The notes under the pieces are model-generated. The model was not told the DNA's origin. It saw only the letters and a list, made by a program, of their open reading frames with translations, and did no database searches. Below are positions 17,861 to 59,947 of a DNA stretch of 64,000 bases, in pieces; position 1 is the first letter of the stretch; the number at the start of each line of letters is the position of its first letter. The position numbers and the translations under genes were made by a program. The stretch covers positions 330,853 to 394,852 of the forward strand of contig CAWINB010000004.1 of assembly GCA_963837465.1 (NCBI GenBank), in the 5' to 3' direction. The DNA is from Candidatus Doudnabacteria bacterium. GTDB lineage: Bacteria > Patescibacteriota > Doudnabacteria > UBA920.

Positions 17861-17872
<12 letters not shown>

Positions 17873-18137
17873 AAGGAACTTTTCTTGACTACACTGGTTT
17901 TCGAACTGTGTGTCAAGACATTCTGTTGGTCGTCGTCAATTATTTCGATTTTTGACGCAATCCTTTCTCAATAAGAAACGACGTAAACGTAAGTGGTTTT
18001 GTATAGCGGTAATTCTACCCATATTTAGCAATAAATATGGGCCTGAGCGCCTTTAATGCTCGGGGTCACTATTTAGCCGTTAAAAAACGGAAATTGCAAT
18101 TAAAAAGCCTGACTTCTACTACTGAAGTGAGGCTTTT
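17861..18137 (+). other. 16S tail + trailer + terminator segment, copy S-A
   Basis: gtcactatttagccgttaa (18065-18083) pairs 18/19 with the leader ttaacagttaaatagtgat (15975-15993). tggttttgta (17994-18003) pairs with the leader tacaaaacca (16029-16038). Terminator hairpin at 18107-18137. Confidence 0.75.
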
Positions 18138-19121
18138 ATGTTTTATAAGGAAAGTGTCGTAGAAACATCTACGAAAACCGACAGTAGGGTTTTGCCATCG
18201 TCCCCGGCTGTTTACAGCCCAAAGATGAGCGAGTTGGTTGATGGGTTTTTAAAGCACGGTCAGTTTGATTTAAGCTGGTCGGCTGGGACAGTCGCAAAAT
18301 ACGGTGAGTGTTTACGGATGACTATTCGGGACATCGGCGATTTGCCGGTAAATGAAATCCGTTTGGTTCACCTTACGGAATTAAAATCTAAAATAATAAT
18401 GCGCGGAGCCGGAGAGTCCAGAGTCGGCTCAATGGTTTTTGCGTTAAAAAGTTTTTTAAAATACTGCAAGGAAATTGTGGAGTTGGATGTGCTGGACTTT
18501 AACAAGATTACCCCGCCAAAACGCCATCGCCGGGAAGTGCTGTTTTTGACCAACGAAGAAATTCAGCGGTTTGTGGATGTTATAAAAATAAAAAATACCT
18601 GGGATGGGAAAAATAAAAAGAGTTGCGTCCGAATGGATGGTCTAAGGTTCAGGGCTTTGGTAGAAGTCTTGCTTGGCAGCGGTATGAGAATATCCGAGGC
18701 GTTATCGCTTAACCGGGGTAGTATAAATTTTGAAAAGAAAGAGGCAAAAATTATCGGTAAAGGTAGCAAGGAACGCACGGTATTTTTTAACGATCGTTCG
18801 TTGGAATGGGTTAGGTATTTATTGGAAGAAAGGAAGGACAGTCACGAACCTTTATTTCTTTCCCAAAAAGGCAACAGGTGGGATAAGGGAGAAGTTAATA
18901 AACTGTTTCAGCGTTATACTAAAAAAGCGGAAATCACCAAAAAATTAACGCCCCATATTCTGCGGCATACTATGGCCACAAACTTACTTTTTAACGGTTG
19001 CCCGATTTCCCACGTCAAAGAAATTTTAGGCCATGATAGGCTGGAAACCACGTGCCGCTACTATCTGGGTTTGGACAAGAGTAAGGCCAAGGAGGCTCAC
19101 GAAAAATTCTTGAATTATTAA
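18138..19121 (+). CDS. Tyrosine recombinase/integrase, class A (copy 1)
   Basis: GMRISEALSL (R), HILRHTMATN (H-x-x-R), LGHDRLETTCRYY (H and Y). 327 aa. Paralogs at 34943 and 47997. Confidence 0.9.
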   Translation: MFYKESVVETSTKTDSRVLPSSPAVYSPKMSELVDGFLKHGQFDLSWSAGTVAKYGECLRMTIRDIGDLPVNEIRLVHLTELKSKIIMRGAGESRVGSMVFALKSFLKYCKEIVELDVLDFNKITPPKRHRREVLFLTNEEIQRFVDVIKIKNTWDGKNKKSCVRMDGLRFRALVEVLLGSGMRISEALSLNRGSINFEKKEAKIIGKGSKERTVFFNDRSLEWVRYLLEERKDSHEPLFLSQKGNRWDKGEVNKLFQRYTKKAEITKKLTPHILRHTMATNLLFNGCPISHVKEILGHDRLETTCRYYLGLDKSKAKEAHEKFLNY

Positions 19122-19159
19122 AAAAATTTATTGAATAAATAGCTCAATTTCGCTATAAT

Positions 19160-19365
19160 TAGAATAATTGAATAGGTGCCTAACCCCATGGCTAAAACTA
19201 TGGGTATGGTAGAAGTAAAGAATCCTCAGCTACGTAAAGACGGTCTCTTAACCGCTCTCGTAGCTGAGGTGCGTGCGAAAGCATGCGGTGGTGTCGAAAG
19301 GCACTGCTGCGGTTGGGAGGCCCTTTTTGTATCCAACCGCAATTTAAAAACCTCAGCTACAACAA
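19160..19365 (+). ncRNA. Candidate structured leader RNA upstream of the type III mod gene
   Basis: tataat at 19154-19159. 11-bp perfect stem cctcagctacg (19224-19234) / cgtagctgagg (19259-19269). Two adjacent GAAA-capped hairpins (cgtgc gaaa gcatg, gtgtc gaaa ggcac). gcggttgg/ccaaccgc stem. A second cctcagctac at 19351-19360, 5 nt before the ATG. Confidence 0.35.
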
Positions 19366-21255
19366 ATGAATAACAAATCACTGATTTTTGAATTGCCCAA
19401 AATTGTGGAAGAGGGCAAAAAAGAAGTTGAAAAAATATTGGAACGGCTTTCCAGTCAAAGTCGGTTAGGTTTGCAGACTAATGAGCTGGTTCTACCGGCA
19501 AAAGATAGTGGCGGGCTTTTTCGCGGGCATATAGCAGAACAGAAAAACAATGAGTGGCTGAATCGCTTAATATATGGCGATAATTTGTTAGCTATGCAGG
19601 CTTTGCTTTCCGGCGATGAGCAGAGCGGTCTTGCCAGTATGCGTGGGAAAATAGATTTAATTTACATTGATCCACCGTTTGATAGCAAAGCTGACTACCG
19701 CACAAAGGTTACCTTGCCTGGCGTGGATTTGGAGCAAAAGCCAACAGTTATAGAACAATTTGCATACGCCGATACTTGGAAAGATGGCACCGTAAGCTAT
19801 TTGAAAATGCTTTATCCTCGTCTTGCTTTAATGCGCGAGTTGCTCTCCGAACAAGGCAGTATTTATGTGCATATTGATTGGCACGTCGGGCATTATGTAA
19901 AAATTTTACTTGATGATATTTTTGGAAAAAATAATTTTAGGAACGAAATAATTTGGTGGTATCTTTGGGGAGGAAGAGGTAAGACACAATGGAATAGCAA
20001 ACATGATAATATTTTATTTTATTCCAAGGATAATAATTGGATTTTTAACTTTAAGGATGTATTAGATGATCACAATTTAATGACAGAAGGGTCAAAAAAT
20101 AGGTTGAATTACAAAGGTGCGATGGTAACTACCAAAAGCGAATCCTCAGAAATACCCGAAGATAAAGTGCTGCCTTCTGATACTTGGTATATAGCAACCA
20201 TTAATGCAATGGCAAAAGAAAAATTAAATTATGGTACTCAAAAACCAGAATCTTTGGTAGAAAAAATAATCAAAGCATCTTCAAATGAAAATTCCATTGT
20301 AGCAGATTTTTTTGCGGGGAGCGGGACAACTGGAGCGGTGGCGGAAAAACTTGGACGGAGGTGGATTATGTCGGATATTGGCAAGCCAGCGGCTTTGATA
20401 ATGCGCAAACGGTTAATTGACCAAAACGCCAAACCGTTTTTGTATCAATCCATCGGCGACTACCAAAAAGAAGCGTTTACCTCCTCAAAGTTATACCGCC
20501 GGGTTGGCGACCTGGCCCAGGTGGTATTGCAACTTTACGGCGCAATCCCTTTTACAGAAGACCAAAGCCAAATGCGAAATTTGGGGTATATAAAAGACAG
20601 TAAAACTTTGGTAATGGTGGATTCGCCGAATAAAATGACCGGCCTTGCCACGCTTAAAAAAGCGCAGGAGCTTAAAGCCAGTTTTATGGGCGGATTTAAC
20701 AAAGTGGTGGTCTTGGGCTGGAATTTTACTTTTGATATTACCGAAGCTATTCATTCGCTTAACGATAAAAGCGTGGAAGTTTTAGTTATACCCCCGGATC
20801 TGTTAGATAAGTTAAAGAGCAAAGCTGATTACAAAGACTTGATTGACAGCGGTAAAATTCGTTTTTCCTCTTTGCAATATCTGACTTTAAAACCAATTAC
20901 GGTAAAAATATTGCCGGATGATAAAGAACAGTTGCATGTTGAATTAGATAATTATGTTTTACTTTCCCCAGACAACATACCTTTGGACGAAAAGGACAAG
21001 GAAAAATTAAAAGAAGTCATTGCTAAAGATCCATTGTCTTTGGTTGAATATTGGAGCATTGATCCCGATTATGACGGAGTTACTTTTCGCAGCCTATGGC
21101 AGGATTATCGGGAAAATGAAGACAATGACGCAGAGCCTTACCATGTTGTAAAATCGGTAGATTTGACTGTCCCCAAAAAGAAAGAAAAAAGAATTGTATG
21201 CGTAAAGGTCGTGGATGTTTTTGGTTTTGAAAGTATTGCGACCGAGGAAGTTTAA
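19366..21255 (+). CDS. mod: Type III restriction-modification methyltransferase (Mod)
   Basis: [11 protein letters not shown] (motif IV) precedes [20 protein letters not shown] (motif I). 629 aa, directly upstream of res. Confidence 0.85.
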
Positions 21256-21258
21256 CAT

Positions 21259-24171
21259 ATGCCATCACCAATCAGCATAGGCACAAGGGACATTCCCTTA
21301 AAACTTGCCAAGACAATTAGTGAGAAAGTAAATTTAGCTTGGGACAGTGGAGAGTTTTTAGACAAGACCACGGCCGTTACTCAAGATTTGCTAAAATTTT
21401 GGTTTACCGAACCACACATAGAAAACCGATATATTAATTTTCACTCCGGCCAGCGCCAGGCTATTTTAAACACCATTTATTTGCACGAAATTTTAAGCAC
21501 GAAGTCCGTTAAAGATATTTACGAGAACATAGAATTTGAACTGTTGCCGGAAATAGACATAGCCGAGCTAAAAAAGCCAAAATACGAAATTCCCAAATAC
21601 GCTATTAAGATGGCAACCGGGACGGGCAAAACATGGGTGATGCACGCCTTGTTAATTTGGCAATATCTAAACGCCAAATATGAAGCCCAAAAATCAGGAA
21701 AGTTTTCCAAGAACTTTTTATTAGTCGCCCCCGGCATAATCGTCTACGAACGGCTGCTGGATGCTTATTTGGGTAAGGAAAATGAAAATCGGGAACGCCA
21801 ATTTGAGCAATCTGATTTTTACCAGTTTAAGGATTTGCTCTTGCCTCCGGCCTTTAGGGAAGAATTTTTTGGCTTTATCCAGTCGGCCGTAGCCAAGAAG
21901 CAGGACATCGGCAGCAAGGTGACTGGTGACGGCCTGATCGCCATTGCCAACTGGCATTTATTTATGGGGGAAGAAGAATCGGAAGACAAACCCGTTTCGC
22001 CATTAGACAGTCCACAACAAATCCTCAAAGACATCATGCCAATTCGGCCGGGAGTATCCGGCGGCAATTCTTTGGATGCTTTAGATAGTGCCTATTGGGG
22101 CGGCAAGGAATTGGATTATTTGGCCAATTTGCCGGATTTAGTTTGTATAAATGACGAGGCACACCACATCCACGAAAATAAAACCTACGGGGAAGTCAGC
22201 GAGGTGGAATGGCAAAAGAGCTTGAATAAAATTGCCGCCTCCAAAGGCCATAAATTCATGCAGATAGATTTTAGCGCCACCCCTTACGACGTAACCGGCA
22301 GCGGGCAAAATCGTATCAAGCATTACTTTCCCCACATCATTGTGGATTTTAAGCTAAAGACGGCCATAGACGGCGGCTTTGTAAAGACCATAGCCATAGA
22401 CAAGCGCAAGGAACTTGTGGATTTGCCTTTAGACTTTAAATCGGTACGGGACGAAAACAATACCGCTATTGCGCTCTCGGACGGGCAAAAGCTGATGATC
22501 CGTGCCGGATTAAATCGATTAAAAATTCTTGAAACGGAATTTGTTAAATTCACTAAAGATGCCGATGGGGTTTCCAATAAATATCCCAAAATGTTGATCA
22601 TGTGCGAGGATACTAAAGTTACGCCATTGGTTGAGGCTTTTTTTCTGGACGAAGGCTTAAGCGAGGACGAGGTGCTTCGGGTAGATTCCAATAAAAAAGG
22701 CGAGATACCGGAAACGGAATGGAGAGAACTTAAACAAAAATTATTTAATATTGATAAGCATGATAAGCCTAAAGTTATTATTTCCGTGCTCATGTTGCGT
22801 GAGGGTTTTGACGTAAATAATATCTGCGTTATTGTCCCGTTGCGTTCGTCCGCCGCCCCGATTTTGCTGGAACAGACTATTGGCCGTGGTTTGCGGCTGA
22901 TGTGGCGGGAGCCGGAATATCGTGAAGCCAAAATGGACAATATCCGGCAATTGATAAAAGAAAAACGGGAACCGCAAAACTTGCTGGACTTGCTGTTTAT
23001 TGTTGAGCATCCGGCGTTTTTGCAATTCTATGAGGATTTAGACAAAGAAAGCATCGTAGAAGTTGGTGACATACCAGAGGGAGGGGTGTTGGGGGAAATT
23101 ATTAAGGTTGGCTTAAAACCCGACTGGCAAAAATATGATATGTATTGGCCGATCATCTTGCGTGATGCGGAAGATGAAATGTCCGGCAGCCGTCCGCCGG
23201 TTGAAAAAATGGAAAAATTTACCGTTTATGCGTTGGAAGATTTAAAGAAGTTTTTTCATAAAGGCGGCGAAAAATTCGTGTCCGAGGAGTTAACCGTTAA
23301 AACCCGTTTTGGGGAGTACATGGTAGATGCCAGCCTGTTTACTTCCCAAAGCTATAATGAGTATTTGCAGAAAATAATCCACGCAGTAGTCAATAGGACG
23401 GCGAAGACAAGTGCACGTGGGCATAAAGTTTACCCGACGTTACAAATAAACCAACTGCAATTAGTTGAAGCTTTGGATTTTTATATCCGCAATCTGTTGT
23501 TTGGTAACTCATATGACCCGTTTGTTGATAATAATTGGAAAGTGCTTTTACTGAAGAATGGCGTTGTTACCCAGCATATCGTCAAAGAGGTGGGCAAACT
23601 AATTTTTGAAATGCAGAATAACACTACCACGAGCGAGGCATTGGTAGAAAAGCGCCATTTTGCCGAAGTGGACAGTTTGAGGATGAGGGAAAATTATTCC
23701 TTGCCGATTGTAAAAACTATTTACGAAAGATTGCGCTACCCTTCTAACAAAGGCGGTTTTGAAAAAGACTTTTTAAGCTATGCGGATGGCGACGGGCAGG
23801 TGGAGGCGATAATTAAAATCGAAGAATACCAGCACACCTTTGCCGTTATCAACTATATGCGTTCCGATGGTTTTCTCGCCCAATACCACCCGGACTTTTT
23901 AGTGCAGGCGGTCAATAAAATCTATGTTATTGAAACAAAAGCCGACAAAGACATTGACGATAAAAATGTCCGGCAAAAGCAGCTGGCTACGCTGGATTGG
24001 ATTAAGCGGATCAACGGGTTAAAAACCGAAGACAGATTAAAAAAAGAATGGGAATATGTTTTGCTAGGTCAAAGCAATTTTTACGGTTTAAGCAAAAACG
24101 GGGCTTCCATAACTGAAATTTGCGAATTAGCCAAGGTTAGCGAGGCTGCGGTGACCGGCAGGCTACTTTAG
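21259..24171 (+). CDS. res: Type III restriction enzyme Res subunit (helicase-nuclease)
   Basis: Walker A MATGTGKT, DEAH box NDEAHHI, helicase C motifs (VLMLREGFDV, QTIGRGLR). 970 aa. Confidence 0.85.
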   Translation: MPSPISIGTRDIPLKLAKTISEKVNLAWDSGEFLDKTTAVTQDLLKFWFTEPHIENRYINFHSGQRQAILNTIYLHEILSTKSVKDIYENIEFELLPEIDIAELKKPKYEIPKYAIKMATGTGKTWVMHALLIWQYLNAKYEAQKSGKFSKNFLLVAPGIIVYERLLDAYLGKENENRERQFEQSDFYQFKDLLLPPAFREEFFGFIQSAVAKKQDIGSKVTGDGLIAIANWHLFMGEEESEDKPVSPLDSPQQILKDIMPIRPGVSGGNSLDALDSAYWGGKELDYLANLPDLVCINDEAHHIHENKTYGEVSEVEWQKSLNKIAASKGHKFMQIDFSATPYDVTGSGQNRIKHYFPHIIVDFKLKTAIDGGFVKTIAIDKRKELVDLPLDFKSVRDENNTAIALSDGQKLMIRAGLNRLKILETEFVKFTKDADGVSNKYPKMLIMCEDTKVTPLVEAFFLDEGLSEDEVLRVDSNKKGEIPETEWRELKQKLFNIDKHDKPKVIISVLMLREGFDVNNICVIVPLRSSAAPILLEQTIGRGLRLMWREPEYREAKMDNIRQLIKEKREPQNLLDLLFIVEHPAFLQFYEDLDKESIVEVGDIPEGGVLGEIIKVGLKPDWQKYDMYWPIILRDAEDEMSGSRPPVEKMEKFTVYALEDLKKFFHKGGEKFVSEELTVKTRFGEYMVDASLFTSQSYNEYLQKIIHAVVNRTAKTSARGHKVYPTLQINQLQLVEALDFYIRNLLFGNSYDPFVDNNWKVLLLKNGVVTQHIVKEVGKLIFEMQNNTTTSEALVEKRHFAEVDSLRMRENYSLPIVKTIYERLRYPSNKGGFEKDFLSYADGDGQVEAIIKIEEYQHTFAVINYMRSDGFLAQYHPDFLVQAVNKIYVIETKADKDIDDKNVRQKQLATLDWIKRINGLKTEDRLKKEWEYVLLGQSNFYGLSKNGASITEICELAKVSEAAVTGRLL

Positions 24172-24192
24172 CATTATGGATTGTAAAAATTT

Positions 24193-24369
24193 ATGTCACA
24201 TGAAGATTTAGACATTGACGAGTTCAAAAGAATTTTTGGAAAGTATTATGACAAGCCGCTTTCCGACCAAGATGCATATGAAGGCGCTTATGATTTGCTT
24301 AACGCTTTTAAATGGTTAGTAGATCAGGACGAAAGCAACAATCTAAAAATTCAGCCAAAAACTAGATGA
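24193..24369 (+). CDS. Small hypothetical protein, paralog 1 of a three-member family
   Basis: 58-aa ORF not in the track: MSHEDLDIDEFKRIFGKYYDKPLSDQDAYEGAYDLLNAFKWLV... It aligns with the next two small ORFs. Confidence 0.4.
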   Translation: MSHEDLDIDEFKRIFGKYYDKPLSDQDAYEGAYDLLNAFKWLVDQDESNNLKIQPKTR

Positions 24370-24533
24370 TTTCTCAAGAAGCGTTAGAAAAATATAAGGC
24401 TATTTACAAGGAAGAGTATGGTGCGGATATTTCAGACGCAGAAGCCTTGGATTTGGCCGTCAATCTTTTAACAATGATGAACGCAGTATATCGGCCGATA
24501 AAAAAAGAATGGGCTGAAGATGCTGACCTTTGA
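24366..24533 (+). CDS. Small hypothetical protein, paralog 2
   Basis: 55-aa ORF: MISQEALEKYKAIYKEEYGADISDAEALDLAVNLLTMMNAVYRPIKKEW... Its start overlaps the previous stop (ATGA). Confidence 0.45.
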   Translation: MISQEALEKYKAIYKEEYGADISDAEALDLAVNLLTMMNAVYRPIKKEWAEDADL

Positions 24534-24560
24534 ATTTAACAATCAAATTTAGATAAATTT

Positions 24561-24698
24561 ATGAAGGTATTTATTAGGTTAGTGTTAGGCTTAGTGGCAT
24601 TATTGTTTATAACTTTTATGTCGGCTGCTTTTGGGATAGGCGGGTTTTTGTTCACGCTCGGTTTGTTTGCGGTTATAGTTTATGCTTTTGCTAGGTAG
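24561..24698 (+). CDS. Small hydrophobic peptide
   Basis: 45-aa ORF: MKVFIRLVLGLVALLFITFMSAAFGIGGFLFTLGLFAVIVYAFAR, with two predicted helices. Confidence 0.3.
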   Translation: MKVFIRLVLGLVALLFITFMSAAFGIGGFLFTLGLFAVIVYAFAR

Positions 24699-24707
24699 CT
24701 ATTTTTT

Positions 24708-24893
24708 ATGATTTCAAAAGAGCATCTTGAAAAATATAAACAGATTTATAAAAACCGTTTTGGGAAAGAATTATCTAACCAAGAGGCTCTTGAGCAGGCC
24801 ACTAAGTTGCTTAGGTTAATAGAAATTATTTACCATCCCATGACCCAGGAAGAGCTGGATATGGTTAATAGGCGGAGACAGGAATTGGGTTAA
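24708..24893 (+). CDS. Small hypothetical protein, paralog 3
   Basis: 61 aa: MISKEHLEKYKQIYKNRFGKELSNQEALEQATKLLRLIEIIYHPM... It shares the LEKYK.IY....G...S..EAL pattern with paralog 2. Confidence 0.5.
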   Translation: MISKEHLEKYKQIYKNRFGKELSNQEALEQATKLLRLIEIIYHPMTQEELDMVNRRRQELG

Positions 24894-24980
24894 AAAGCTT
24901 TGACTAAAGTTTGCCATCACAAAGCTTGGAATTTTGCTATAATTAAGAGGCACAAAGCCTCTTTTAATTTAACCCCCTCT

Positions 24981-26114
24981 ATGAACTATATCGAAGATTG
25001 GAAATTATATCTTTGGAAAAAACTGTTGCTGAAATCTGATTATTTCAGCCAGCAAAACCTTAACCTATTTCAGGCTATCCGTAATTTTGTATTTGGCCAG
25101 GACTGGGGCGGAACTGTAGGCAACGATTTGATAGCACAAGCATTAATTGAAATGAGCAATTTTCAGCCGCCCGCTGTTGAGATTACCAACGTTAGGATGT
25201 TAAAAGATTACCGAGATTACCATTACAAGAGATTGTCTGAAGAAGAAGCAAAAAAGGCGCTCGCGGCTGCCACAAGCTCAAGCTATACAAATCCAAATTC
25301 CAAAACCGTCCACGTTGTTTTGCAGCCCAACCACGGATTGCCTAAAGAAGTAGACCAGAAGCTGGAGAAACTTGAGAAGGACAAAAATCTGGCTGACTTA
25401 GATTTGGCGGACTTAAAAACGATGGCCTATAATGCCAAGCTCCCTCAATACTTATGGAATTACGTTAGCTTTGATGCGAAATTCCACAAAGAGCCTTTAG
25501 AAAAAAAGCTAAACGATTACATCGACTCTTTTATCCAAGGGGATTTGGTAGCGCCAAGGGGTTTTAGACTTTACGGCCCAAGACAGCAGATGGAGAGAAT
25601 GTGGCAAACTATACAGGTATTAGCGACTGGTCAGGGCTCGAAAAACCTCAAAGTTACTTTGCGGGACATTGTGCCGCCGGGACGTAGCCCAGTAAATGAG
25701 CATAATCTCTATAAATTTTATGAAATGATACTGGCTTTGGAGCGCAGTGGCGACATCACAGTTACTGATATAGTCGGCTCCGAGGCAGTTATTTCCATAG
25801 CCCCAAGGCATTTAAAAAATCTCGACCCGGACTTAAGGATACCCCCTGCTTTTGCTAAATTTGAAGGCAAGTTTGTCGAACATGAACTTCATTGGTATTG
25901 CCCTATATGCGGCAACAAGATTAAAGTCTTTGAGGACAAAGACACGCTGGCGGAAACCCTTACTATCCGCACCAAACGCTGTAAAAACGGCCACGAAAAC
26001 AAAATAATGATTATCGATGATAAGCTGTATTTGGAAAATACGCCCATTGCCGTTTCAGAAGCAATGGCACACTTTAAGCGCAGGAATAAAGTCCAAAAAC
26101 CAGATGGCGTTTGA
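24981..26114 (+). CDS. Hypothetical protein with a C-terminal zinc ribbon
   Basis: The first ATG at 24981 is preferred. C-terminal CPICGNK...CKNGH Cys/His pairs. Confidence 0.45.
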   Translation: MNYIEDWKLYLWKKLLLKSDYFSQQNLNLFQAIRNFVFGQDWGGTVGNDLIAQALIEMSNFQPPAVEITNVRMLKDYRDYHYKRLSEEEAKKALAAATSSSYTNPNSKTVHVVLQPNHGLPKEVDQKLEKLEKDKNLADLDLADLKTMAYNAKLPQYLWNYVSFDAKFHKEPLEKKLNDYIDSFIQGDLVAPRGFRLYGPRQQMERMWQTIQVLATGQGSKNLKVTLRDIVPPGRSPVNEHNLYKFYEMILALERSGDITVTDIVGSEAVISIAPRHLKNLDPDLRIPPAFAKFEGKFVEHELHWYCPICGNKIKVFEDKDTLAETLTIRTKRCKNGHENKIMIIDDKLYLENTPIAVSEAMAHFKRRNKVQKPDGV

Positions 26115-51784: not shown

Positions 51785-51858
51785 CAATTAATTGATCTTT
51801 TAAATTTTTAATACAGTAGTAGTTTGTCAGGCAATTTCCGTTTACAACGGCTCAGAAA
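51785..51858 (+). repeat. Right-end repeat R1, copy b
   Basis: Nearly identical to 34588-34662. Confidence 0.85.
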
Positions 51859-51865
51859 CACCTCC
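51859..51865 (+). repeat. att core copy 5 (cacctcc followed by ctccggctaca)
   Basis: Heptamer preceded by ...ggctcagaaa. Followed by a short left end with the terminator cccgctc gtaatt gagaggg ttttt. Confidence 0.6.
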
Positions 51866-52033
51866 CTCCGGCTACAGAAAATGCAAATACAGAAACTGTC
51901 CAAGAATGAAATCGCCCGCTCGTAATTGAGAGGGTTTTTGATTATAAGAGACCGATGGGTTGTGGTTCATGTTACCTCTGGACAGTTTTCGGCCGTAGGT
52001 TATAATTAAGGCAAGATATTAACTAATTATTAT

Positions 52034-52891
52034 ATGGGGACTTATGCAGGAGGCAGGCCAGGTGGAGAAGTTGACCCGGGGCTTATTGCCGGTCAAATTT
52101 TGGACAAATCAAAAAAAGGCGAAAGCAAACAGAAACAGCCTTTAGCCGAGGCTCTTGCTGATAAGGCATTATCGCGAGACCAGATGTTTCAAAAGCTGTA
52201 TAGTATGGTGCCAGCAATGGAACGCTATGCCGAATCACGGCTCGGCAGCCATAAAGCCAATGCGGCCGACATTGTGAGCAAGGCCATGGCCTACGTGATT
52301 CAGAGTGCAAGCGTTACCTTTTGGGTGCTTATTTCCGGAAATTTTTTTACGAAAAAACTTAATCAAAATCGCAATGTTCAAGAAATACGCGTGTTTTGAA
52401 ATTTTCATTTCAACACACACATATCCCTTGAAGCAACTTAACTAGTTAAACCACGATTTTTTGTCTTAATTGTGTTTTAAAAATACAATCTCACGCACCC
52501 AAAAGGTAACGCTCTCATTCAGAGTATAGATAACGGGGTTTTTCGGTTTAATGCGCCGTTGAGCAGTTGGTTTAAAATCTCGGTAAATGGGCGCATCCAG
52601 GATCGTTTTCGGTCGGCAACTAACGACCCCTTGGATCGAGCGGAAAGCATGGATGCGCCTATGGAGTCGGCAAAAGGGGATGAAAGCTATCGCCAGTATG
52701 CTGATTCTACTCCAAATATCGAGGAAAAGTTGGTGGCACAATCCAACGAACAGGCGCTTAAAAGAGGTATCGCCGTGCTCCTAAAACAGAACCAAAAACT
52801 TGGCGACGTTATGAGTTTGGTTGCCGACGGTTTAACCAACCAAGAAATCGCTGAGCGGCTAGGCGTTAATAGCAACCAAGTCAAAGTATAA
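52034..52891 (+). pseudogene. Sigma-70-family/LuxR-HTH-like regulator gene, split by a MITE and truncated by IS3
   Basis: Removing 52307-52525 fuses 52034..52306 to 52526..52891 in frame. The region-4-like ...LVADGLTNQEIAERLGVNSNQVKV stops abruptly at the IS3 end. Confidence 0.6.
52307..52516. mobile_element. MITE (210 bp) with 22-bp terminal inverted repeats and a 9-bp target duplication
   Basis: gcaagcgttaccttttgggtgc (52307-52328) vs gcacccaaaaggtaacgctctc (52495-52516), 20/22 complementary. Flanked by attcagagt at 52298-52306 and 52517-52525. The AT-rich interior has no ORF. Confidence 0.8.
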
Positions 52892-52965
52892 TGGACTGGG
52901 AATCCTGTACAGGTATATTAGATAGAAAATCGGGGGTATAATACTGTCAGGAAGGAATAACAAAA

Positions 52966-53256
52966 ATGAAAAAGGTGTTTACCCCGCAGCAGAAAGCTGC
53001 GGTAGCCCTGGAGGCCATTAAGGGCGAATTAACAATTGCACAGATTGCCAGTCAATACGAAGTTCATCCCACTCAGATCGCAGTCTGGAAGAAACAGGCC
53101 ATAGAGATTTTAAAGGCCGGCTTTACCGATAAGCGTAAAAAGGAAAATTTTGACCAGCAGAGGATAACTGATGACCTCTACAAGACCATCGGCCAGCGCG
53201 ACATGGAGCTGGCCTGGCTTAAAAAAAAGTTGCAGCCATTTGGACTTTCAGACTAA
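52966..53256 (+). CDS. IS3-family transposase OrfA (HTH)
   Basis: MKKVFTPQQKAAVALEAIKGELTIAQIASQYEVHPTQIAVWKKQ... plus a leucine-zipper-like end. Confidence 0.8.
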   Translation: MKKVFTPQQKAAVALEAIKGELTIAQIASQYEVHPTQIAVWKKQAIEILKAGFTDKRKKENFDQQRITDDLYKTIGQRDMELAWLKKKLQPFGLSD

Positions 53257-53701
53257 ACAGAATTTAATTATTCCCGGTCTCCAAGGCCTTTCCATTGCCA
53301 GGCAAGCAAAGCTCCTTAATATTTCCCGCTCCGGTTTTTACTACAAGCCCGCGTCCCTAAGCCCTGAAGAAATTCGCATCATGGGCTGTATAGATAAAAT
53401 CTTTACCGATTGCCCATTCTACGGCTCCCGCAGGATCAAGCACGAGCTGGAAAGTCAGCCGTACAAAATTTTCATCTGTCGAGAGCATGTGCAACATCTT
53501 ATGCGCCAGATGGGACTGGAAGCTATATATCCAAAAAAAATTACTACCATACCTAACCTGCAGCACCTTAAATACCCCTACTTGTTAAAAAATTTGCCTA
53601 TTGTGAGGCCTAACCAGGTCTGGGGCACGGATATTACCTACATTAAGCTACTCGGCGGCTTCTGTTATTTAGTCGCCTTACTGGACTGGTTTTCCCGATA
53701 C
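53228..53701 (+). pseudogene. IS3-family transposase OrfB, truncated after the first catalytic Asp region
   Basis: Track ORF 53171..54139 is a chimera. Transposase similarity ends near 53701, and residues from GEYRDTKNQ onward are unrelated. Confidence 0.7.
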
Positions 53702-54227
53702 GGGGAATATAGGGATACAAAAAATCAACCGTACATAGAACTGCAAAAATCCGGGTGGAAAGGTGAATTAGGTCAAGAGCTAAAAAATAGATTTAGCTCT
53801 GCCTCTGAACAATCGCATGCAAACTTGTTTAAAATGATGTTTTGGAGAGGCTCAAGAACAGAAAAAGAAAATGGTCAATTTAAGATAGTAGATCGTTTTG
53901 AATTTTTTGACAATCCAAACCCGCCAGATTGGATGATAACTAACCTCCACTGGCTGATAGACACCTCTTTTACCATACTGATTTTGTTGTCAGAAACTTT
54001 TCAGGAACCTCAAAAAAACAGTGATTTTAAAAAAGCAGTACAGACTAAATATTCAAAGTATAAAAAATACATACTTGAGAACCAGGACAAAATATTGATT
54101 AGACATAAGCTCACATATATTCCAGAAGAAGAAGTTTAATTTTTTGGTCAAACTCCACTGTCGATATTTTATAATTGATTTGTTATGACCGTTGGTTGTT
54201 TTTTAAAATTTTTGTTATAGTTTTATC

Positions 54228-54483
54228 GGAGTAGTGAGAGTTGGTGTTTTTAGCCCTTTTGGCTAAAACACTGCCGTGTAATAAGTCCGCCATCCGCCTT
54301 GTGCGGTGGATTTGCCCGAGTAGGGTGAAAGGTGCGGTTAAAAGCGGCAGTGGCTTACGGGTCCACCAAGAGTTCAGCCGAGCAATAACTGGAGCAAAAC
54401 CGAGGGCTGGAAAGCGAAATAGGATTTTCCTCTCGCTTGCTACTCCCGCAAAGAACTTCCAATTTTGGGAGTTTTTTGTTTTT
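54228..54483 (+). ncRNA. Candidate ~255-nt structured RNA ending in an intrinsic terminator
   Basis: Extended -10 tgttatagt at 54213-54221. Stems gtgttttagcc/ggctaaaacac, ctgccg...cggcag and cagcc...ggctg. Terminator aacttcc aatttt gggagtt plus a T-run at 54454-54483. The overlapping 83-aa ORF looks non-genic. Confidence 0.3.
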
Positions 54484-54543
54484 AAACAATAGGGAATATG
54501 GAGGTATTGTTATAAACACCTCATTTTGTGGTATAGTATAGGT

Positions 54544-55152
54544 ATGAAAATGTTGCTTGAATTTGACTACAAAAAAGCCACCCAAGCGATAAACTACCTC
54601 ACAAAAAAAGAGGGCGGACAGATTGATAAACTGAAACTCATTAAGCTTGTCTACCTCGCAGATAGGTATCACTTGCGGCGATATGGTCGGCCGATGGTCA
54701 ACGATGCCTATTTTGCCATGCCTCTCGGCCCAGTTGGTTCATCCGTAAAAGACATTGCGGAGTTTTCTGGTTTTCTTGATGGGTCAGAACTAACCTATGC
54801 TGTAACATATTTGGGACGCGGGGGCGTTGAAAATACAGTGGTGTCCATAGCAGATGTTGATACGGGAGTTTTTTCAAAGAGCGAAATCGAAGCTCTTGAT
54901 TTTGCCTATAATGAGTTTGGCGGACAATCAGCCCCGTCTTTAGTAAATATTACACATCGCTATCCGGAATGGGATAAATTTAAGAGTGCGCTCCAATCAA
55001 AAGAAACAACCCGTGAGCCGATGTCTTATACTGATTTTTTTAAAAACCCCATCAATGGGACAGAAGATAAATTTGTCCTCTCAAGTGACATACTTGCGGC
55101 TTCCAAAGAACTTTTTGATGAAGACTACAAGATTGCCGAATACTGGAGATAA
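54544..55152 (+). CDS. Panacea-domain (DUF4065, SocA/PanA-like) protein
   Basis: IDKLKLIKLVYLADRYHLRRYGRPMVNDAYFAMPLGPVGSSV...THRYPEW fits the DUF4065 pattern. Confidence 0.7.
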   Translation: MKMLLEFDYKKATQAINYLTKKEGGQIDKLKLIKLVYLADRYHLRRYGRPMVNDAYFAMPLGPVGSSVKDIAEFSGFLDGSELTYAVTYLGRGGVENTVVSIADVDTGVFSKSEIEALDFAYNEFGGQSAPSLVNITHRYPEWDKFKSALQSKETTREPMSYTDFFKNPINGTEDKFVLSSDILAASKELFDEDYKIAEYWR

Positions 55153-55174
55153 ACGGGATAACCGATATACGGAT

Positions 55175-55627
55175 ATGAAAATCCCAGCGCACATTCGCAT
55201 TTTAGCGACAATACAACCTGGCTCGATTTATTATTTTGAAGAAGAGCAACTCTCTTCACCAGAGCCGCACTACTTCATAGTTTTGAATAAAGACCCGCTC
55301 ACAGAGGAATTTCTTATTCTTGTTTGCGCTTCTTCCCAAGTTGAGAAGCGTCGGCAGATAGCAATAAAGCTGGGCTTTCCAAAAGAAACTTTGGTATTTG
55401 TATCACCATCCGAATGCTCGCTTTTCACAAAGGATACCGTTATAGATTGCAACAGGGTTTTTGAAAAAACTTCGCAGTCTCTCATTGAAAAACTTGAGCA
55501 AGAGAATCTCAAAGTATGCGCAGAAGTAATTGCCACAGAGATTATCGCCAAACTGATACAGGGAGTGTTGGCAAGCTCGCAAGTATCCGAAAAGATACAG
55601 CAATTACTCTTAAATCATACCAACTAA
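55175..55627 (+). CDS. Hypothetical protein, candidate toxin partner of the Panacea protein
   Basis: 150 aa from the ATG at 55175, 22 nt after the Panacea gene. No motif recognised. Confidence 0.4.
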   Translation: MKIPAHIRILATIQPGSIYYFEEEQLSSPEPHYFIVLNKDPLTEEFLILVCASSQVEKRRQIAIKLGFPKETLVFVSPSECSLFTKDTVIDCNRVFEKTSQSLIEKLEQENLKVCAEVIATEIIAKLIQGVLASSQVSEKIQQLLLNHTN

Positions 55628-56072
55628 GCCCCGGGCTTAAAAATCCTATGCATAGTCAGCCAGCGTAAACTTTAGCAAACCTTGTTCGAACCTCTCTGCA
55701 GGTGGCGAGCCACATGGGACGAACAACCTCGAAAGAGGGGGTTCGTCCTTTGTTTATCGATGGATTCTTTTGTTCGAACCTTGCAGATGCCTTTGGTTCT
55801 TGCTTGATGCCATTTTTTATTATTTCCAGCTCTTCAGGCAAGCAAACATTGAGGATTTTGTTGATTAGGGTTGTGTTCGAACCTAATTCCGAAAGTATCT
55901 CTCGTTTCTTTTTAATATCGCCGTGCTTCAACAAATATTTGGCTTGGAACACAAAATCACCGTACGGCAGTGGCGACACCAAATTGTAGTAGAACCTAAA
56001 TTAACAAAATAAATCTCTCTTGCCTGAAGAGAGATTATTGGTGTTAGTTTTGGTTTTGGTAGATTTTTTGGT

Positions 56073-56348
56073 TTAGCCATTGGCTTGGACAATTTTTTGC
56101 AGATCGAGAGGTTCGTCTTTTTTTGCGTTTTTCATTGGCGCGGTATCGTATACATATTTAAGCAACGAATCCAAGGTAAACGAACCAAACTGTTTTATTA
56201 TGGTATCAACGATGTCTTTTTTTACCGGTGCTATATTCAACTCTACTGGCTTGCCGGTATATTGGAAAAGAAAATAGACTTCATCGGGATGGGATACTTT
56301 ATTTTGTTGTTTGACCTCAATAAATTTATGGGCTTCAAGTGGGCACAG
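56073..56348 (-). pseudogene. C-terminal fragment of a second Panacea-domain protein
   Basis: The startless minus-strand reading ...APVKKDIVDTIIKQFGSFTLDSLLKYVYDTAPMKNAKKDEPLDL parallels EIEALDFAYNEFGGQSAPSLVNITHRYPEW of the intact copy. Confidence 0.35.
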
Positions 56349-56587
56349 TCATAGTTGAAAGTCAGGGATGAAAAGCAATTCCGAAGCACCAAGTTTTTGC
56401 CAGCCGGGGCCGACATAAAAACTTCACAGTTCATTTATGGTAATACCCTGGCTATTATTTCCCTCAATAAGCGCAAGCCCGTAGCCATAATCATGGAAGA
56501 CCCGGATAGTGGATGTTACCAATCTGCCGCGAGGAACCTTTATTGAATCGTGTTATAATAAAGGAAATTAACCCATTAGAAATAAAT

Positions 56588-57043
56588 ATGAAAATCCATA
56601 CCCAGACTGATAAAGAGAGGCAGCAGCAGTTAAAGCTGTTTTATGATTTCATAAGATCGCACAAGCTGGCGGTTATGGCTACGGTAACCGGAAGCGCTTT
56701 GCCTGAAGCTGCGGTGGTAGGCATTGGGGTGGAGGAAAACTTGCAATTGCTTTGCAGCACTTTCAGCACCTCCAGGAAATATGAAAATATTAAACTGAAT
56801 CCGAAAGTCGCGTTGGTCATTGGCTGGGAACACGGTAAAACGGTGCAGTACGAGGGGACGGCCGAGGAGTTAAGTATTGAGCAGGCCGAAGAAAATCCGC
56901 TGCGGGACGGATTGGAAAAAATACCGGCCATTGCCAAGTATGTACAAAGGGAATACGGCGTGTTCTATAAAATTAAGCCAGAGTGGGTTAGAATGAGCGA
57001 TTTATCGGTAGACCCATGGGAACGGTTTGAAATTAAGTTTTAA
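56588..57043 (+). CDS. Pyridoxamine 5'-phosphate oxidase-family (FMN-binding split barrel) protein
   Basis: LAVMATVTGSALPEAAVVG...KVALVIGWEHGKTVQYEGTAEEL pattern. The ATG at 56588 is preferred. Confidence 0.6.
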   Translation: MKIHTQTDKERQQQLKLFYDFIRSHKLAVMATVTGSALPEAAVVGIGVEENLQLLCSTFSTSRKYENIKLNPKVALVIGWEHGKTVQYEGTAEELSIEQAEENPLRDGLEKIPAIAKYVQREYGVFYKIKPEWVRMSDLSVDPWERFEIKF

Positions 57044-57080
57044 CTAAAAATAATTAAGAACCTGTTTTAAAACAAAACAT

Positions 57081-57638
57081 ATGAACGAAACACAAAATGT
57101 TGTGCAAATCCCCGAGCCGGCCTTGTCGCGGTTTTTATTCGCCGACAGCCGCTTTGCCTGGTTCTGGCTTATCGTCAGGTTGTATGTCGGCTGGCAGTGG
57201 CTTTCGGCAGCTTGGGAAAAATTCAACAGCCCCATGTGGGTGGGTAGTCAGGCTGGTGTTGCCATTAAAGGCTTTCTTATGGGTGCCGTGCAAAAAGCTG
57301 CCGGAGCTCATCCTGACGTTTCCGGATGGTATGCTGCTTTTTTGCAGAACTTTGCCATTCCCCACGCCGCGGCTTTTTCTTATGTGGTAACTTATGGCGA
57401 ATTGTTGGTAGGAATTGCCTTGATTTTGGGCGTGCTTACGGGTATAGCGGCTTTCTTTGGCACGTTTATGAACTTGAATTATTTGTTTGCCGGAACCGTC
57501 AGCATCAATCCTTTATTGGCCGTATTAGGATTGTTCTTGATTTTGGCTTGGCGCACAGCAGGCTGGTACGGGCTGGACCGCTGGTTGTTGCCAACCTTGG
57601 GCACGCCTTGGCAAGCAGGCAAAATATTTAAAGGTTAA
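57081..57638 (+). CDS. DoxX-family membrane protein
   Basis: Four TM helices. RLYVGWQWLSAAWEKF and YGELLVGIALILGVLTGIAAFFG are typical of DoxX/DoxD. Confidence 0.65.
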   Translation: MNETQNVVQIPEPALSRFLFADSRFAWFWLIVRLYVGWQWLSAAWEKFNSPMWVGSQAGVAIKGFLMGAVQKAAGAHPDVSGWYAAFLQNFAIPHAAAFSYVVTYGELLVGIALILGVLTGIAAFFGTFMNLNYLFAGTVSINPLLAVLGLFLILAWRTAGWYGLDRWLLPTLGTPWQAGKIFKG

Positions 57639-57678
57639 TAGGTTCTAGAAAAAATTAATCTTTACTATAATATGCAAT

Positions 57679-58470
57679 ATGCAACCATCCTTACAACAGC
57701 TTATAAACCTTAAAGACAAAACTGCCGTTGTTACCGGCGGCGCTATGGGCATTGGCTTTGGTATCGCGTATCGGCTTGCAGAAGCCGGAGCCAATGTAGT
57801 TGTCGCGGATATGAATGAGAAAGTTGGCAAGGCTTCAGCAAAGCAATTGGCTGATAAAGGCTGGAAAGCCGGCTTTGTCAAGGTTGATGTCTCTGATGAT
57901 TTGCAGGTAGGGGCGGCAGTGGAATTTGCCCGCAAAACCTACGGCGGCATTGATATTTTAGTCAATGACGCCGGCATTTATCCCATAGCTCCGATCATGC
58001 AAATGGCTGTGAAGGATTTTGAGAAAGTCCTTGCCGTAAATTTAAAGAGTGTTTTTCTTTTTACCAAAGCCGTGGCGCAAGTTATGATAGAGGACGGCAA
58101 GGGCGGTAAAATTATAAACATCACTTCCGTGGACGCTCTCCATCCTTCTTCGGTGGGTTTGGCTGTTTATGACGCTTCAAAGCATGGGCTGTGGGGTTTT
58201 ACCAAAAATACCGCCTTAGAACTGGCGCCGCATAACATTCAGGTTAATGCCATAGCCCCGGGCGGTATCGCTACACCCGGCACAGGAGCGGGCCAAGCGC
58301 AAACTCCGCAAATAGAGGCAGTCACCAAAGAATTTTTGAAAAAAATTCCCATGAAGCGCATGGGTGATCCCGACGACATCGGCAAAGTCGCCCTGTTCCT
58401 TGCTTCCGACCTTTCCAGCTACATGACCGGGTCACAGGTAGTGGTTGACGGAGGAGTTTTGCTGGCCTGA
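57679..58470 (+). CDS. Short-chain dehydrogenase/reductase (FabG-like)
   Basis: TGGAMGIGFG (cofactor site), NDAG, YDASKHG (catalytic Y-x3-K). Confidence 0.85.
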   Translation: MQPSLQQLINLKDKTAVVTGGAMGIGFGIAYRLAEAGANVVVADMNEKVGKASAKQLADKGWKAGFVKVDVSDDLQVGAAVEFARKTYGGIDILVNDAGIYPIAPIMQMAVKDFEKVLAVNLKSVFLFTKAVAQVMIEDGKGGKIINITSVDALHPSSVGLAVYDASKHGLWGFTKNTALELAPHNIQVNAIAPGGIATPGTGAGQAQTPQIEAVTKEFLKKIPMKRMGDPDDIGKVALFLASDLSSYMTGSQVVVDGGVLLA

Positions 58471-58489
58471 TAAATTATTATATAATCGC

Positions 58490-59072
58490 ATGACCGGCTA
58501 CAAAGATGTTTTGGGTATTGTTACTTTATTAATCGCAGTAGTCAGCTACAGTTTTTATTTTAAAGATGTCTTTTTGGGCCATACCAGGCCGCAGCCTTTT
58601 TCTTGGTTTGTTTGGTCAGTCCTTTCTGCCGTAGCCTTTGCCGGCCAAATTGCCTCAACTGCCGGGCCGGGCGCTTGGATTACGGGATTTACTGCCAGTG
58701 GTGTGCCTTATCATTTCCGTAATAGCTTCCTTTAAAGGAGCAACGCAATTTAAAATTTTAGACTGGATTTCGCTGTTTGCGGCTTTAGCGGCGCTCCTGC
58801 TTTGGTATTGTACAAGGCAGCCGGTTTTGGCAGAGATGTTGGTAAGCGCGGCTTATGCGCTAGGTTTTATCCCAACCATTGTAAAAAGCTACAACAAGCC
58901 CCAAGAAGAAACGGCTACCACCTTTGGGCTAAATTCCATTAAGTTTGGCATTTCCATTTTTTCCTTAACCGTTTTTTCCGTTGCCACCTGGCTGTATCCG
59001 CTGACACTTTTTGTCTTAAATGGTTTATTTGCCATTATGCTGTTAGCGCGCCGTCAGCAAACGGCTGGTTGA
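58490..59072 (+). pseudogene. Multi-pass membrane protein with an apparent +1 frameshift near 58700
   Basis: ORFs 58445..58735 and 58638..59072 are both hydrophobic. Together they read as one protein if one base is skipped around actgccagtggtgtgcc. Confidence 0.45.
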
Positions 59073-59168
59073 ATTAAAAGCAGGTTCTAGCTTAAAATCT
59101 GCCCGGCTATACGGAATATTGTGCCAAAGCGCATTGGTCCCTCATGTCGGCGATTTTCTAAATTAGTC

Positions 59169-59612
59169 ATGAATCCCATAATTTTCCTTATCCTCAATCT
59201 GGCTTTAGCCTTTTATAACGTCGGTACCATCTGGGCCATGGAAGTGGATATTTTCCGCTCCTGGAAACTTGCGGGCGCTGATTTTCCCAAAGTCCAGGAA
59301 GTTCACTGGCGAAAACTTCCTTATTGGGTTTTTGCTCCGGTAGTTTCGGCCCTTTTAGGCGGCATCGTGCTGGTTTGGCATCACCCGGCCAACTCGCCAG
59401 CTTGGGGATACTTCGGAGCTTTGCTGTGCCAAGCCGCCTCTTTAATTTTAACCGCCATCTTTTGGGGGCAGTGGCAGGCAAAGCTGTCCAAAGATCCGCT
59501 CGGTCCTAACTGTTTGTACTTGCAGAAAATTTTAGCCACCCACTGGATCAGAACCTTGCTTGTCAATGCCTATGCTTTTATCTTGCTGGCATGGATGGTA
59601 AAAATCATATAA
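59169..59612 (+). CDS. Hypothetical four-helix membrane protein
   Basis: 147 aa from the ATG at 59169. Confidence 0.45.
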   Translation: MNPIIFLILNLALAFYNVGTIWAMEVDIFRSWKLAGADFPKVQEVHWRKLPYWVFAPVVSALLGGIVLVWHHPANSPAWGYFGALLCQAASLILTAIFWGQWQAKLSKDPLGPNCLYLQKILATHWIRTLLVNAYAFILLAWMVKII

Positions 59613-59668
59613 CCCGCGAAGGCTATTTAATGAAACAATAAAATCTAAATTACTAATCCAGAAAAGAA

Positions 59669-59788
59669 ATTGCAGGCTTTAGGGACAAAGCGATCCACGA
59701 CTATGCCGGCCTTCATGCCGGGATAGTTTGGGAAACCATCCAAACGGATTTAAAACCACTACAAACAGCCTTGTTAAAAGTATCATAA
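59669..59788 (+). pseudogene. HepT/DUF86 C-terminal remnant
   Basis: IAGFRDKAIHDYAGLHAGIVWETIQTDLKPL retains R-x4-H-x-Y but has no N-terminal half and no start. Confidence 0.55.
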
Positions 59789-59935
59789 GAGCTAAAAGTT
59801 GATATTTTTGACAGGCTGTTTTGTTTTCTCAAAAATGCTATAATGTAATTACTAATTGTTATCTCAACTGGAGATAAAAGCCTCTTTTCAAACTAAATAG
59901 TGACTCCTGCAACACAGTTCCTACGTCGGGGTGAA

Positions 59936-59947
59936 CACCTCCTTTCT
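59936..59947 (+). repeat. att core copy 6 (cacctcctttct), distal boundary of the array
   Basis: 12/12 identical to the 16S tail. Preceded by gtcggggtgaa (compare 16S gtcgtggat). Followed by unique sequence and the LCP gene. Confidence 0.7.

Follow-up and report, generated by a model that had tools for sequence, protein, structure and literature searches.

The classic landing sites of integrative elements are stable-RNA genes, with those of tRNA and transfer-messenger RNA (tmRNA) as the recognized targets, and tandem islands at such genes are known from the ssrA islands of Dehalococcoides and the tycheposons of Prochlorococcus. Here, we analyze a 64-kb stretch of DNA from a Candidatus Doudnabacteria bacterium, referred to as the window, in which site-specific integrative islands very probably stand in tandem at the 3′ terminus of a single, unlinked 16S rRNA gene, each island having its own Xer-like recombinase. 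As in the tRNA and tmRNA islands, the integrase lies beside the attachment (att) site, and the 3′ end of a stable-RNA gene is targeted, its displaced 3′ part being carried by the element. Moreover, a short direct repeat marks each junction, elements stack at one site, and the cargo is of the accessory and defence type. In contrast, the target here is a 16S rRNA gene and not a tRNA or tmRNA gene, the restored part runs ~270 nt past the mature RNA and includes one strand of the processing stem, and the integrases are short and Xer-like instead of P4- or lambda-type. Since the logic is that of the tRNA and tmRNA islands, we regard the array as a known kind of island with a new target.

Other described systems share single aspects of this arrangement. 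Accretion in streptococci involves integrase-less cis-mobilizable elements (CIMEs), whose mobilization is proven experimentally and whose targets are protein or tRNA genes. Similarly, both integrase-bearing and integrase-less units of the array are bounded by att-type sites of one kind, so that composite excision would be possible, whereas the integrase-less units have different left ends (core plus terminator). Like integrons, the locus is a one-directional accessory array behind a strong promoter, built by a tyrosine recombinase; unlike in integrons, the integrases are not IntI, several of them lie within the array, the units are multigene and no attC-type site is apparent at the level of sequence classes. 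Integrative mobile elements exploiting Xer (IMEX) at dif resemble it in the Xer-like fold and size of the enzyme and in tandem stacking at a short chromosomal site, whereas the enzymes here score below the XerC and XerD cutoffs, are element-encoded and would act at the 16S end instead of dif. Finally, group I and group II introns and homing endonucleases occur in rRNA genes of the Candidate Phyla Radiation (CPR), and R1/R2 retrotransposons in eukaryotic rDNA. These also exploit the extreme conservation of rRNA as a target, and the 16S genes of two loci compared below (L006, L015; L-numbers are labels of public contigs and loci) carry introns as well. In contrast to the array, they insert inside the rRNA, splice out or inactivate the copy, and move by homing or retrotransposition without cargo islands.

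The attB of phage phiEf11 is located in ffs (4.5S RNA) and was presented in 2025 as a novel RNA-gene att site; it thus shares with the window a non-tRNA stable-RNA gene as target, whereas that report describes a single prophage at a different RNA, with no array and no surrogate processing sequence (PMC12540744). A catalogue of 1.75 million islands distinguishes only tRNA/tmRNA, coding-sequence and intergenic targets (PMC12424338). According to a first-pass annotation of the window, no bacterial integrative-element family is known to use this target, and full-text searches of open-access papers and preprints likewise gave no such description. The 16S 3′ end is apparently a landing site new to the literature; new are the rRNA-gene target, the restoration of a whole processing spacer and the confinement of the family to CPR bacteria. 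rRNA genes, which are more conserved than any others, would form a new class of att site, so far seen only in the CPR (Patescibacteria), where 16S and 23S genes are often unlinked.

Tandem units behind the 16S rRNA gene

No 23S, tRNA or tmRNA gene is found anywhere in the 64-kb window, so that the 16S gene is unlinked, as reported to be common for rRNA genes of Patescibacteria (10.1101/705046). The units follow it in this order:

16287–17870, + strand: 16S rRNA gene, bacterial small-subunit rRNA (Rfam)
17861–17867, + strand: putative attL core CACCTCC (anti-Shine-Dalgarno) at the 16S 3′ end, where the sequence of unit 1 starts
17861–34662, + strand: unit 1, 16.8 kb, with arm A, integrase A1, cargo and right end RE1 (34594–34662)
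34663–46049, + strand: unit 2, 11.4 kb, with arm B, integrase A2, cargo and right end RE2 (about 45889–46049)
46050–47720, + strand: unit 3, 1.7 kb, without integrase; core, terminator, HopA1-like open reading frame (ORF) and RE2-type end (47541–47720)
46083–46107, + strand: intrinsic terminator of unit 3, 30–80 nt 3′ of the core
47721–51858, + strand: unit 4, 4.1 kb, with arm C, integrase A3, cargo and an RE1 copy (51790–51858)
51859–59935, + strand: unit 5, 8.1 kb, without integrase; core, then a ~80-nt module with a terminator-like hairpin (by eye)
59936–59947, + strand: distal junction, CACCTCCTTTCT, with an RE2-like end on its left (72% over 25 nt)

CACCTCC occurs 11 times on both strands of the window, compared with 3.8 ± 2.1 times in shuffles, and its + strand copies mark the junctions at 17861, 34663, 46050, 47721, 51859 and 59936. 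The first-pass annotation had reported the same-orientation heptamer at these six positions only; the six positions hold, whereas two further + strand copies, at 56767 and 63891, had been missed. Neither of the two shows flanking similarity to the other copies. The longer 12-mer CACCTCCTTTCT has exactly four copies, all on the + strand (17861, 34663, 47721, 59936), a count reached by none of 100 shuffles; with one mismatch allowed, 0.28 copies are expected in the window. The three left copies at 17861, 34663 and 47721, read before as identical over 17 nt, are in fact identical over 18 nt (CACCTCCTTTCTAAGGAA), and these 18 nt from the core onward, common to arms A, B and C, are the same as the 16S tail of relatives. 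A direct repeat of the 3′ end of the target gene therefore stands at the element boundaries, four times as CACCTCCTTTCT and as the bare CACCTCC at 46050 and 51859.

On the left of the cores, the right ends fall into recurring classes, as the first reading by eye had it. The RE1 pair (34594–34669 and 51790–51865) is 100% identical over 76 nt, and the RE2 pair (45889–46056 and 47541–47727) is 77–81% identical, with the last 25 nt invariant. At the distal junction, the 12-mer together with the RE2-like left flank is too unlikely by chance, and 59936 is therefore kept as the outer boundary proposed before, while the membership of unit 5 inside this boundary is uncertain. A 75-nt spacer with a terminator-like hairpin (by eye) follows on the 3′ side, and then a LytR-family gene. 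Strand exchange would take place in or at the 7-bp CACCTCC; we place the crossover there because it is the only sequence common to all junctions, the left ends of units 3 and 5 sharing nothing else with the other copies.

Units 1, 2 and 4 each carry an integrase at the end adjoining the attachment site:

18138–19121, + strand: integrase A1, Xer-like tyrosine recombinase, 327 aa (unit 1)
34943–35929, + strand: integrase A2, tyrosine recombinase (unit 2)
47997–48968, + strand: integrase A3, tyrosine recombinase (unit 4)

All three belong to PF00589 (E about 1e-40) and are pairwise 59–63% identical. Their ATGs lie 277, 280 and 276 nt 3′ of the heptamer, in agreement with the 276–280 nt noted earlier, each behind a homologous ~275-nt arm, and the same layout recurs in 21 public loci. 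The enzymes are short and Xer-like, without a lambda-type arm-binding domain, and score below all curated family cutoffs tried: 158 vs 335 for XerC, 145 vs 330 for XerD and 177 vs 220 for XerA_Arch, and among the integron models 84.5 bits vs 265 for TIGR02249 and 57 vs 435 for PRK15417. An assignment as XerC/XerD chromosome dimer resolvases was rejected on the equivalog cutoffs.

The short motif GAAATTGC is found at the same position in the three arms (18090, 34895 and 47953, + strand) and, inverted, in each of the two RE1 copies at a distance of ~28 nt from the core (34635–34642 and 51831–51838, − strand). It could be a protein-binding site common to both element ends. As an arm-binding motif it was not retained, since its count in the window, 9 vs 5.8 ± 2.3, is not above chance.

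Species-representative genomes were scanned with the three window integrases, and a metagenome scan added further loci. The named hosts of close relatives are Saccharibacteria, Doudnabacteria, Colwellbacteria and Moraniibacteria metagenome-assembled genomes, all Patescibacteria; the sole exception is a 6-kb contig that is binned as archaeal yet bears a bacterial 16S. Every homolog that reaches 59% identity and has 230 nt or more of sequence before it (11/11) carries CACCTCCTTTCT 196–279 nt upstream of the integrase start. The 12-mer also precedes eight more homologs at 49–52% identity and none below 43%. The recombinases of L087–L098, from soil and other metagenomes, are 45–47% identical and form adjacent pairs ~1.5 kb apart; as CACCTCCTTTCT is absent from their vicinity, this clade was left out of the family and presumably uses another target.

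To the left of the 12-mer, 9 of the 21 public loci have the 16S 3′ end and 12 an unrelated non-rRNA element end, the latter including the long contigs L004, L008, L086 and L101. Full 16S genes were confirmed at this position by blastn or Rfam in L006, L009 and L010, with no 23S within 10 kb downstream in these three. Multi-unit arrays are seen in the long contigs L004, L086 and L006+L008; L006 and L008 are parts of a single contig and together show an array of ~29 kb. Since the 12-mer is joined either to 16S or to foreign ends, multi-unit arrays behind 16S are common in this group.

The element and its host differ markedly in conservation. A3 and the L006 integrase are 96% identical at the amino acid level, and arm C matches the L006 arm at 94.6% of nucleotides (89–95% for arm plus integrase), whereas the two 16S genes are only 81–89% (about 83%) identical. 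Integrase and arm are thus far better conserved than the host 16S, and the better conservation of element coding DNA indicates recent horizontal transfer. Moreover, each of the three paralogous integrases is closer to one in another genome than to its neighbours in the array, the cargo is almost entirely different between loci, and array content differs between the window and L006/L008. The first-pass annotation had interpreted the region as a single attB at the 16S 3′ end that was used repeatedly for integration, with attL, hybrid and attR sites as the outcome; this interpretation now gains support from the tie between 12-mer and integrase in the 21 loci, the arrays in other contigs, the variable cargo and the identity gap between element and host. 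We infer the mobility of the elements from such comparison, as we do the activity of the recombinases, the order of insertion, a role of the arm RNA in rRNA processing and transfer from cell to cell.

Arms as putative 16S trailers

The arms, the segments between core and integrase, share ordered conserved blocks, and two boxes in the 16S leader are complementary to such blocks:

17868–18137, + strand: arm A, with TTTCTAAGGAA, 4–5 hairpins, leader-complementary blocks and a terminal hairpin holding the GAGG ribosome-binding site (RBS) of the integrase
34670–34942, + strand: arm B (unit 2)
47728–47996, + strand: arm C (unit 4)
15975–15993, + strand: 16S leader box, TTAACAGTTAAATAGTGAT, complementary to arm block GTCACTATTTAGCCGTTAA
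16029–16046, + strand: 16S leader box, GTACAAAACCATCGCGTC, complementary to arm block GACG...GGTTTTGTA

An RNAalifold consensus of eight arms from five genomes comprises 4–5 hairpins with compensatory changes in 18/53 pairs. A covarying hairpin closes every arm; its 3′ half has GAGG 5–6 nt before the integrase ATG, and a T run comes next. Speculatively, this hairpin may both end the pre-rRNA and limit integrase translation. Because the integrases are without a lambda-type arm-binding domain, the conservation of the arms is hard to credit to arm-type binding sites of the recombinase.

The same leader boxes occur in L006 and L010, and the two positions at which the window leader is substituted still pair, with C to U facing G and G to A facing U. 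The same nested helices result when the window leader is cofolded with each of the three arms A, B and C, when the L006 leader is cofolded with the arm of L006 or of L008, and for L010. The best local leader–arm complementarity is 3–5 standard deviations (sd) above shuffles in L010, L009, L015, L105 and L112. Local complementarity scoring and cofolding were used in place of RNAduplex on whole leaders and whole arms, which proved uninformative: long interior loops are allowed, and the arms scored 1.5–2.4 sd below shuffles. Four Moraniibacteria-type loci have a different 26-bp leader–trailer helix that is 91% paired, a percentage inflated by an alignment built from the best complementary segments, and in which 10 pairs are changed on both sides, a count that this inflation does not affect; with the partner strand slid, 40–44% is paired. 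The ‘trailer-like segment’ of the first-pass annotation hence goes beyond resemblance, as it pairs with the 16S leader. The arms may act as surrogate 16S 3′ trailers that restore the processing stem of the pre-rRNA.

A model of integration can be drawn from these features. The end of the 16S gene would serve as attB, and each integrase-bearing element would carry a copy of the 16S tail (CACCTCCTTTCTAAGGAA) plus ~260 nt of structured sequence on its integrase side. Integration at CACCTCC would swap out everything 3′ of the anti-Shine-Dalgarno, the resident trailer included. The element would in turn supply the remaining 16S tail and the 3′ strand of the processing stem, so that the mature 3′ end and the leader–trailer stem are re-established; that the stem would be restored is deduced from the pairing of arm sequence with the conserved boxes of the host leader. 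The target gene would in this way be repaired by element-borne sequence, namely the 18-nt tail and the leader-complementary trailer present in arms A, B and C. Newcomers would enter at the 16S-proximal site and push older elements distally, which would result in the order element 1 (RE1), element 2 (RE2), unit 3 (RE2), element 4 (RE1), unit 5 and chromosome. The integrase-less units would be trans-mobilizable remnants or captured trailer-plus-flank DNA.

A further-reaching reading is possible, if rather doubtful: in several CPR classes, mobile islands of one family may have captured the 3′ external spacer of the single-copy 16S, with leader dependence, expression coupling and a broad host range. 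If so, the 16S leader of the host would evolve together with a horizontally exchanged, element-borne trailer on which it depends, and at least one element would be effectively un-losable, an addiction that acts via rRNA processing. Transcription that starts at the rRNA promoter and runs past the RBS-sequestering hairpin would tie the expression of integrase and cargo to the synthesis of ribosomes, and a crossover in the universal anti-Shine-Dalgarno would imply an unusually broad potential host range, limited mainly by the unlinking of 16S and 23S. In any case, an element bearing a working host rRNA processing signal would be an unusual entanglement of host and element. The array makes up ~5% of its 868-kb contig and would be a tangible path by which organisms with tiny genomes exchange genes and turn over their defence systems. 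Such arrays may explain part of the well-known assembly breakage at 16S in the CPR. As its enzymes would recognize a 16S sequence that is nearly universal, the recombinase family could be developed into a genetic tool for lineages not yet cultivated, and island finders should also scan downstream of unlinked 16S genes.

Assembly support and competing explanations

Checking the junctions against reads had been proposed with the first-pass annotation, and two of them, at 17861 and 34663, are reproduced by contigs of the short-read run ERR10755945. L001 corresponds to window 17729–29121 and spans the junction between 16S and unit 1. L082 matches window 34640–38405 at 100%, beginning 23 nt left of the core at 34663, inside RE1, and running into unit 2. 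L001 differs from the window at 11 positions, of which 10, including 5 single-base indels, fall into the last 130 nt of the 16S (17729–17860), with 1 difference in the adjoining 11.26 kb of the element. Some of the differences in the 3′ part of the window 16S affect universally conserved stretches; GTACTCACCG, for example, stands in place of the expected GTACACACCG.

Four alternatives to tandem integration were considered. A false array, chained by the assembler from one-element strains via shared repeats of 18–76 nt, would fit a source that is a metagenome assembly, in which the 18-mer and the 76-nt RE1 are prone to mis-joins and the 3′ part of the 16S likely contains consensus errors. However, the internal junctions join a right end to the next core, not 16S to core, which simple chaining would not produce; L082 crosses RE1 and core into unit 2 independently; the same type of internal junction is present in the unrelated long contigs L004, L008, L086 and L101; and the source contig of 868 kb is typical of long-read assembly. 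We consider such an artefact highly improbable. Unlikely, too, is a resident, domesticated Xer-like gene that has stood behind a native trailer since an ancestor, its copies and cargo having arisen by segmental duplication and homologous recombination. As expected of a native trailer, the arm does pair with the host leader, whose boxes are conserved among hosts; all relatives examined have an integrase after 16S, no empty site having been seen among them; and RE1 is duplicated without a mismatch over its 76 nt. Nevertheless, residence is difficult to reconcile with the identity of integrase and arm across hosts whose 16S genes have diverged to ~83%, with three diverged paralogs (59–63% identical) in one array and each nearer to an integrase of another genome, with junctions that break precisely at this one heptamer at 5 sites of the window and in 12 public loci, the left flanks being unrelated, and with a cargo that is not common to the loci.

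An integron-like platform, in which one 16S-linked recombinase stockpiles cassettes at an attI-like site for expression from the rRNA promoter, is suggested by the co-orientation of ~39/41 array genes with 16S, by the cassette-like units 3 and 5 bounded by recurring end classes, and by a best NCBIfam model whose name includes ‘integron integrase’. The scores against both integron models are nonetheless far below cutoff, and the several integrases lie each in its own unit beside its own core, in place of one integrase divergent from the array. Further, the units are multigene and measure 1.7–16.8 kb, terminators follow the cores, and the right ends form unrelated classes instead of attC-type hairpins (judged by sequence class), which together render the platform very unlikely. 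Lastly, core and trailer might be all that is left of deleted 16S paralogs from former rRNA operons, given that the arms resemble genuine 16S trailers. This is barely credible: left of the internal cores, no 16S sequence is present and the identity does not extend beyond CACCTCC; directly upstream of these cores lie distinct end classes and protein-coding genes; and a single rRNA copy is usual in Patescibacteria.

Several observations weigh against tandem integration itself. No empty attB, circular attP contig or excision product was found in the public genomes and metagenomes searched; 18 full-length metagenome contigs are without terminal overlaps, and L100 and L101 are collinear and not circular permutations. 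No exact protein match was obtained for the LytR of the window, for its ClpP with either of two candidate starts, or for integrase A3. The closest relatives of the flanking genes are 64–75% identical and non-syntenic: the nearest LytR homologs (73–75%; L183, L184, L186) are not beside 16S and have no 12-mer, and those of the L008 ApbE (64–66%; L187, L188) are not beside 16S either. IMG/VR holds no relative more than 40% identical, which indicates that the elements are not recognized phages. The main leader–arm helix of the window, taken alone, is only ~1.3 sd above shuffles, so that its support comes from the homologous helices of relatives, and the construction of the Moraniibacteria-type alignment calls for the caution given above. 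Between the 16S end and units 3 and 5, no more than 7 nt are common, and these units, placed beside 16S, would alter its 3′ tail. The identical RE1 copies could stem from homologous recombination or gene conversion, and 17729–17860 likely carries consensus errors or a mixed-population consensus.

Unit 5 is uncertain as an element: it may be native flank, or a segment that is old or was captured. In L008, an RE1-like end, CACCTCC and a unit-5-type module follow one another, and the module borders chromosomal-looking genes: ApbE, a DedA/VTT protein and a glycosyltransferase (GT2). L008:16794–16956 is 89% identical to the start of unit 5 over 163 nt, and the equivalent RE1 and unit-5 module lie 17.2 kb apart in the window, with units 2–4 between them, a difference in content that speaks for mobility. 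The left ends of units 3 and 5 could be displaced short trailers of native type, flanks captured by imprecise or secondary-site excision, or parts of trans-mobilized units.

L008 also contains an orphan arm fragment (13343–13552) with neither core nor integrase; it matches arm C at 80% from around position 63 and is flanked by a truncated reverse transcriptase (RT) gene and a Fic gene. A frameshift affects the first integrase of L008, which has 19 in-frame stops. Both are signs of decay or rearrangement inside arrays.

Cargo, second recombinases and flanking DNA

The cargo had been described as defence and addiction genes, and largely it is: type III and Dcm/PstI-like restriction-modification, AbiEi/AbiEii, BrnT/BrnA and a Panacea-domain antitoxin are all encoded. 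In unit 1, a LOOT RNA (19177–19305) is followed by type III Mod/Res, a Phage_CRI-like (rolling-circle Rep-like) replication protein, a second type of recombinase termed group B, a diversity-generating retroelement (DGR), a methyltransferase and BrnT/BrnA. Unit 2 encodes a ParB-like protein, a group-B recombinase and a type II Dcm methylase with a PstI-like endonuclease, while unit 4 contains an IS256-family transposase and then AbiEi/AbiEii. In unit 5, the module precedes an IS3 element, the Panacea-domain antitoxin, PNPOx, DoxX and SDR.

The DGR (29129–31717) consists of a variable repeat (29654–29782), which forms the 3′ end of the ORF 29129–29806, a template repeat (30148–30276) and an RT gene (30674–31717). 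The two repeats differ at 26 positions, and 26/26 of these are A in the template copy, so that both the RT and the repeat pair expected of a DGR are present. Homologs of the region occur in L008.

Five recombinase genes are located within the array, the three integrases and two group-B paralogs (27917–28885 in unit 1, 39633–40682 in unit 2) that are 41% identical to the integrases. The group-B genes have no 16S-type core upstream and neighbour the Rep-like gene in unit 1 and the ParB-like gene in unit 2. They could be part of a nested plasmid-like module, or a partner or resolvase. The two-recombinase layout is also seen in L001–L003.

Outside the array, the upstream flank encodes SodA, RNase Y, YmdB, NusA and ClpP, and the downstream flank the LytR-family gene (60018–61226) and an ABC ATPase. 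Two features belong to the 16S gene and its upstream region:

15600–15628, + strand: sigma-70 promoter, TTGACA-17-TATAAT, 12/12 consensus, ~660 nt 5′ of the 16S and likely its promoter
16447–16545, + strand: 99-nt near-palindromic hairpin insertion in the window 16S

A group I intron interrupts the 16S of L006 (8071–8566), and the L015 16S has group II intron domains near its 3′ end (4156–5157). Taken with the hairpin insertion, these introns show that mobile or inserted sequences of several kinds are hosted together by the 16S genes of these genomes.

Further addiction and mobile genes outside the array (97–507, 8485–9265, 14183–15469) are those of a PemK/MazF-like toxin, an MNT/HepT nucleotidyltransferase–RNase pair and, directly 5′ of the 16S promoter, an rve-family transposase. 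An IS630-like element (2792–3932) with DDE_3 and helix-turn-helix ORFs on the − strand is bounded by 30-bp terminal inverted repeats, 93% complementary, and splits a TPR-repeat gene into 2099–2818 and 3915–4583.

LOOT RNA (RF03000, classified as small RNA (sRNA) in Rfam) is found twice in the window, at 689–802 and in unit 1, and in four related islands (L005:2549–2669, L006:16987–17107 on the − strand, L007:5465–5584 and L009:13404–13518). In 5/6 cases its 3′ end lies 30–60 nt before the ATG of unrelated ORFs, among them type III mod and a bPH_2 protein, and a promoter-like site (19131–19159) is situated just 5′ of the unit 1 copy. This placement suggests that LOOT is a cis-acting 5′ leader rather than a free-standing sRNA.

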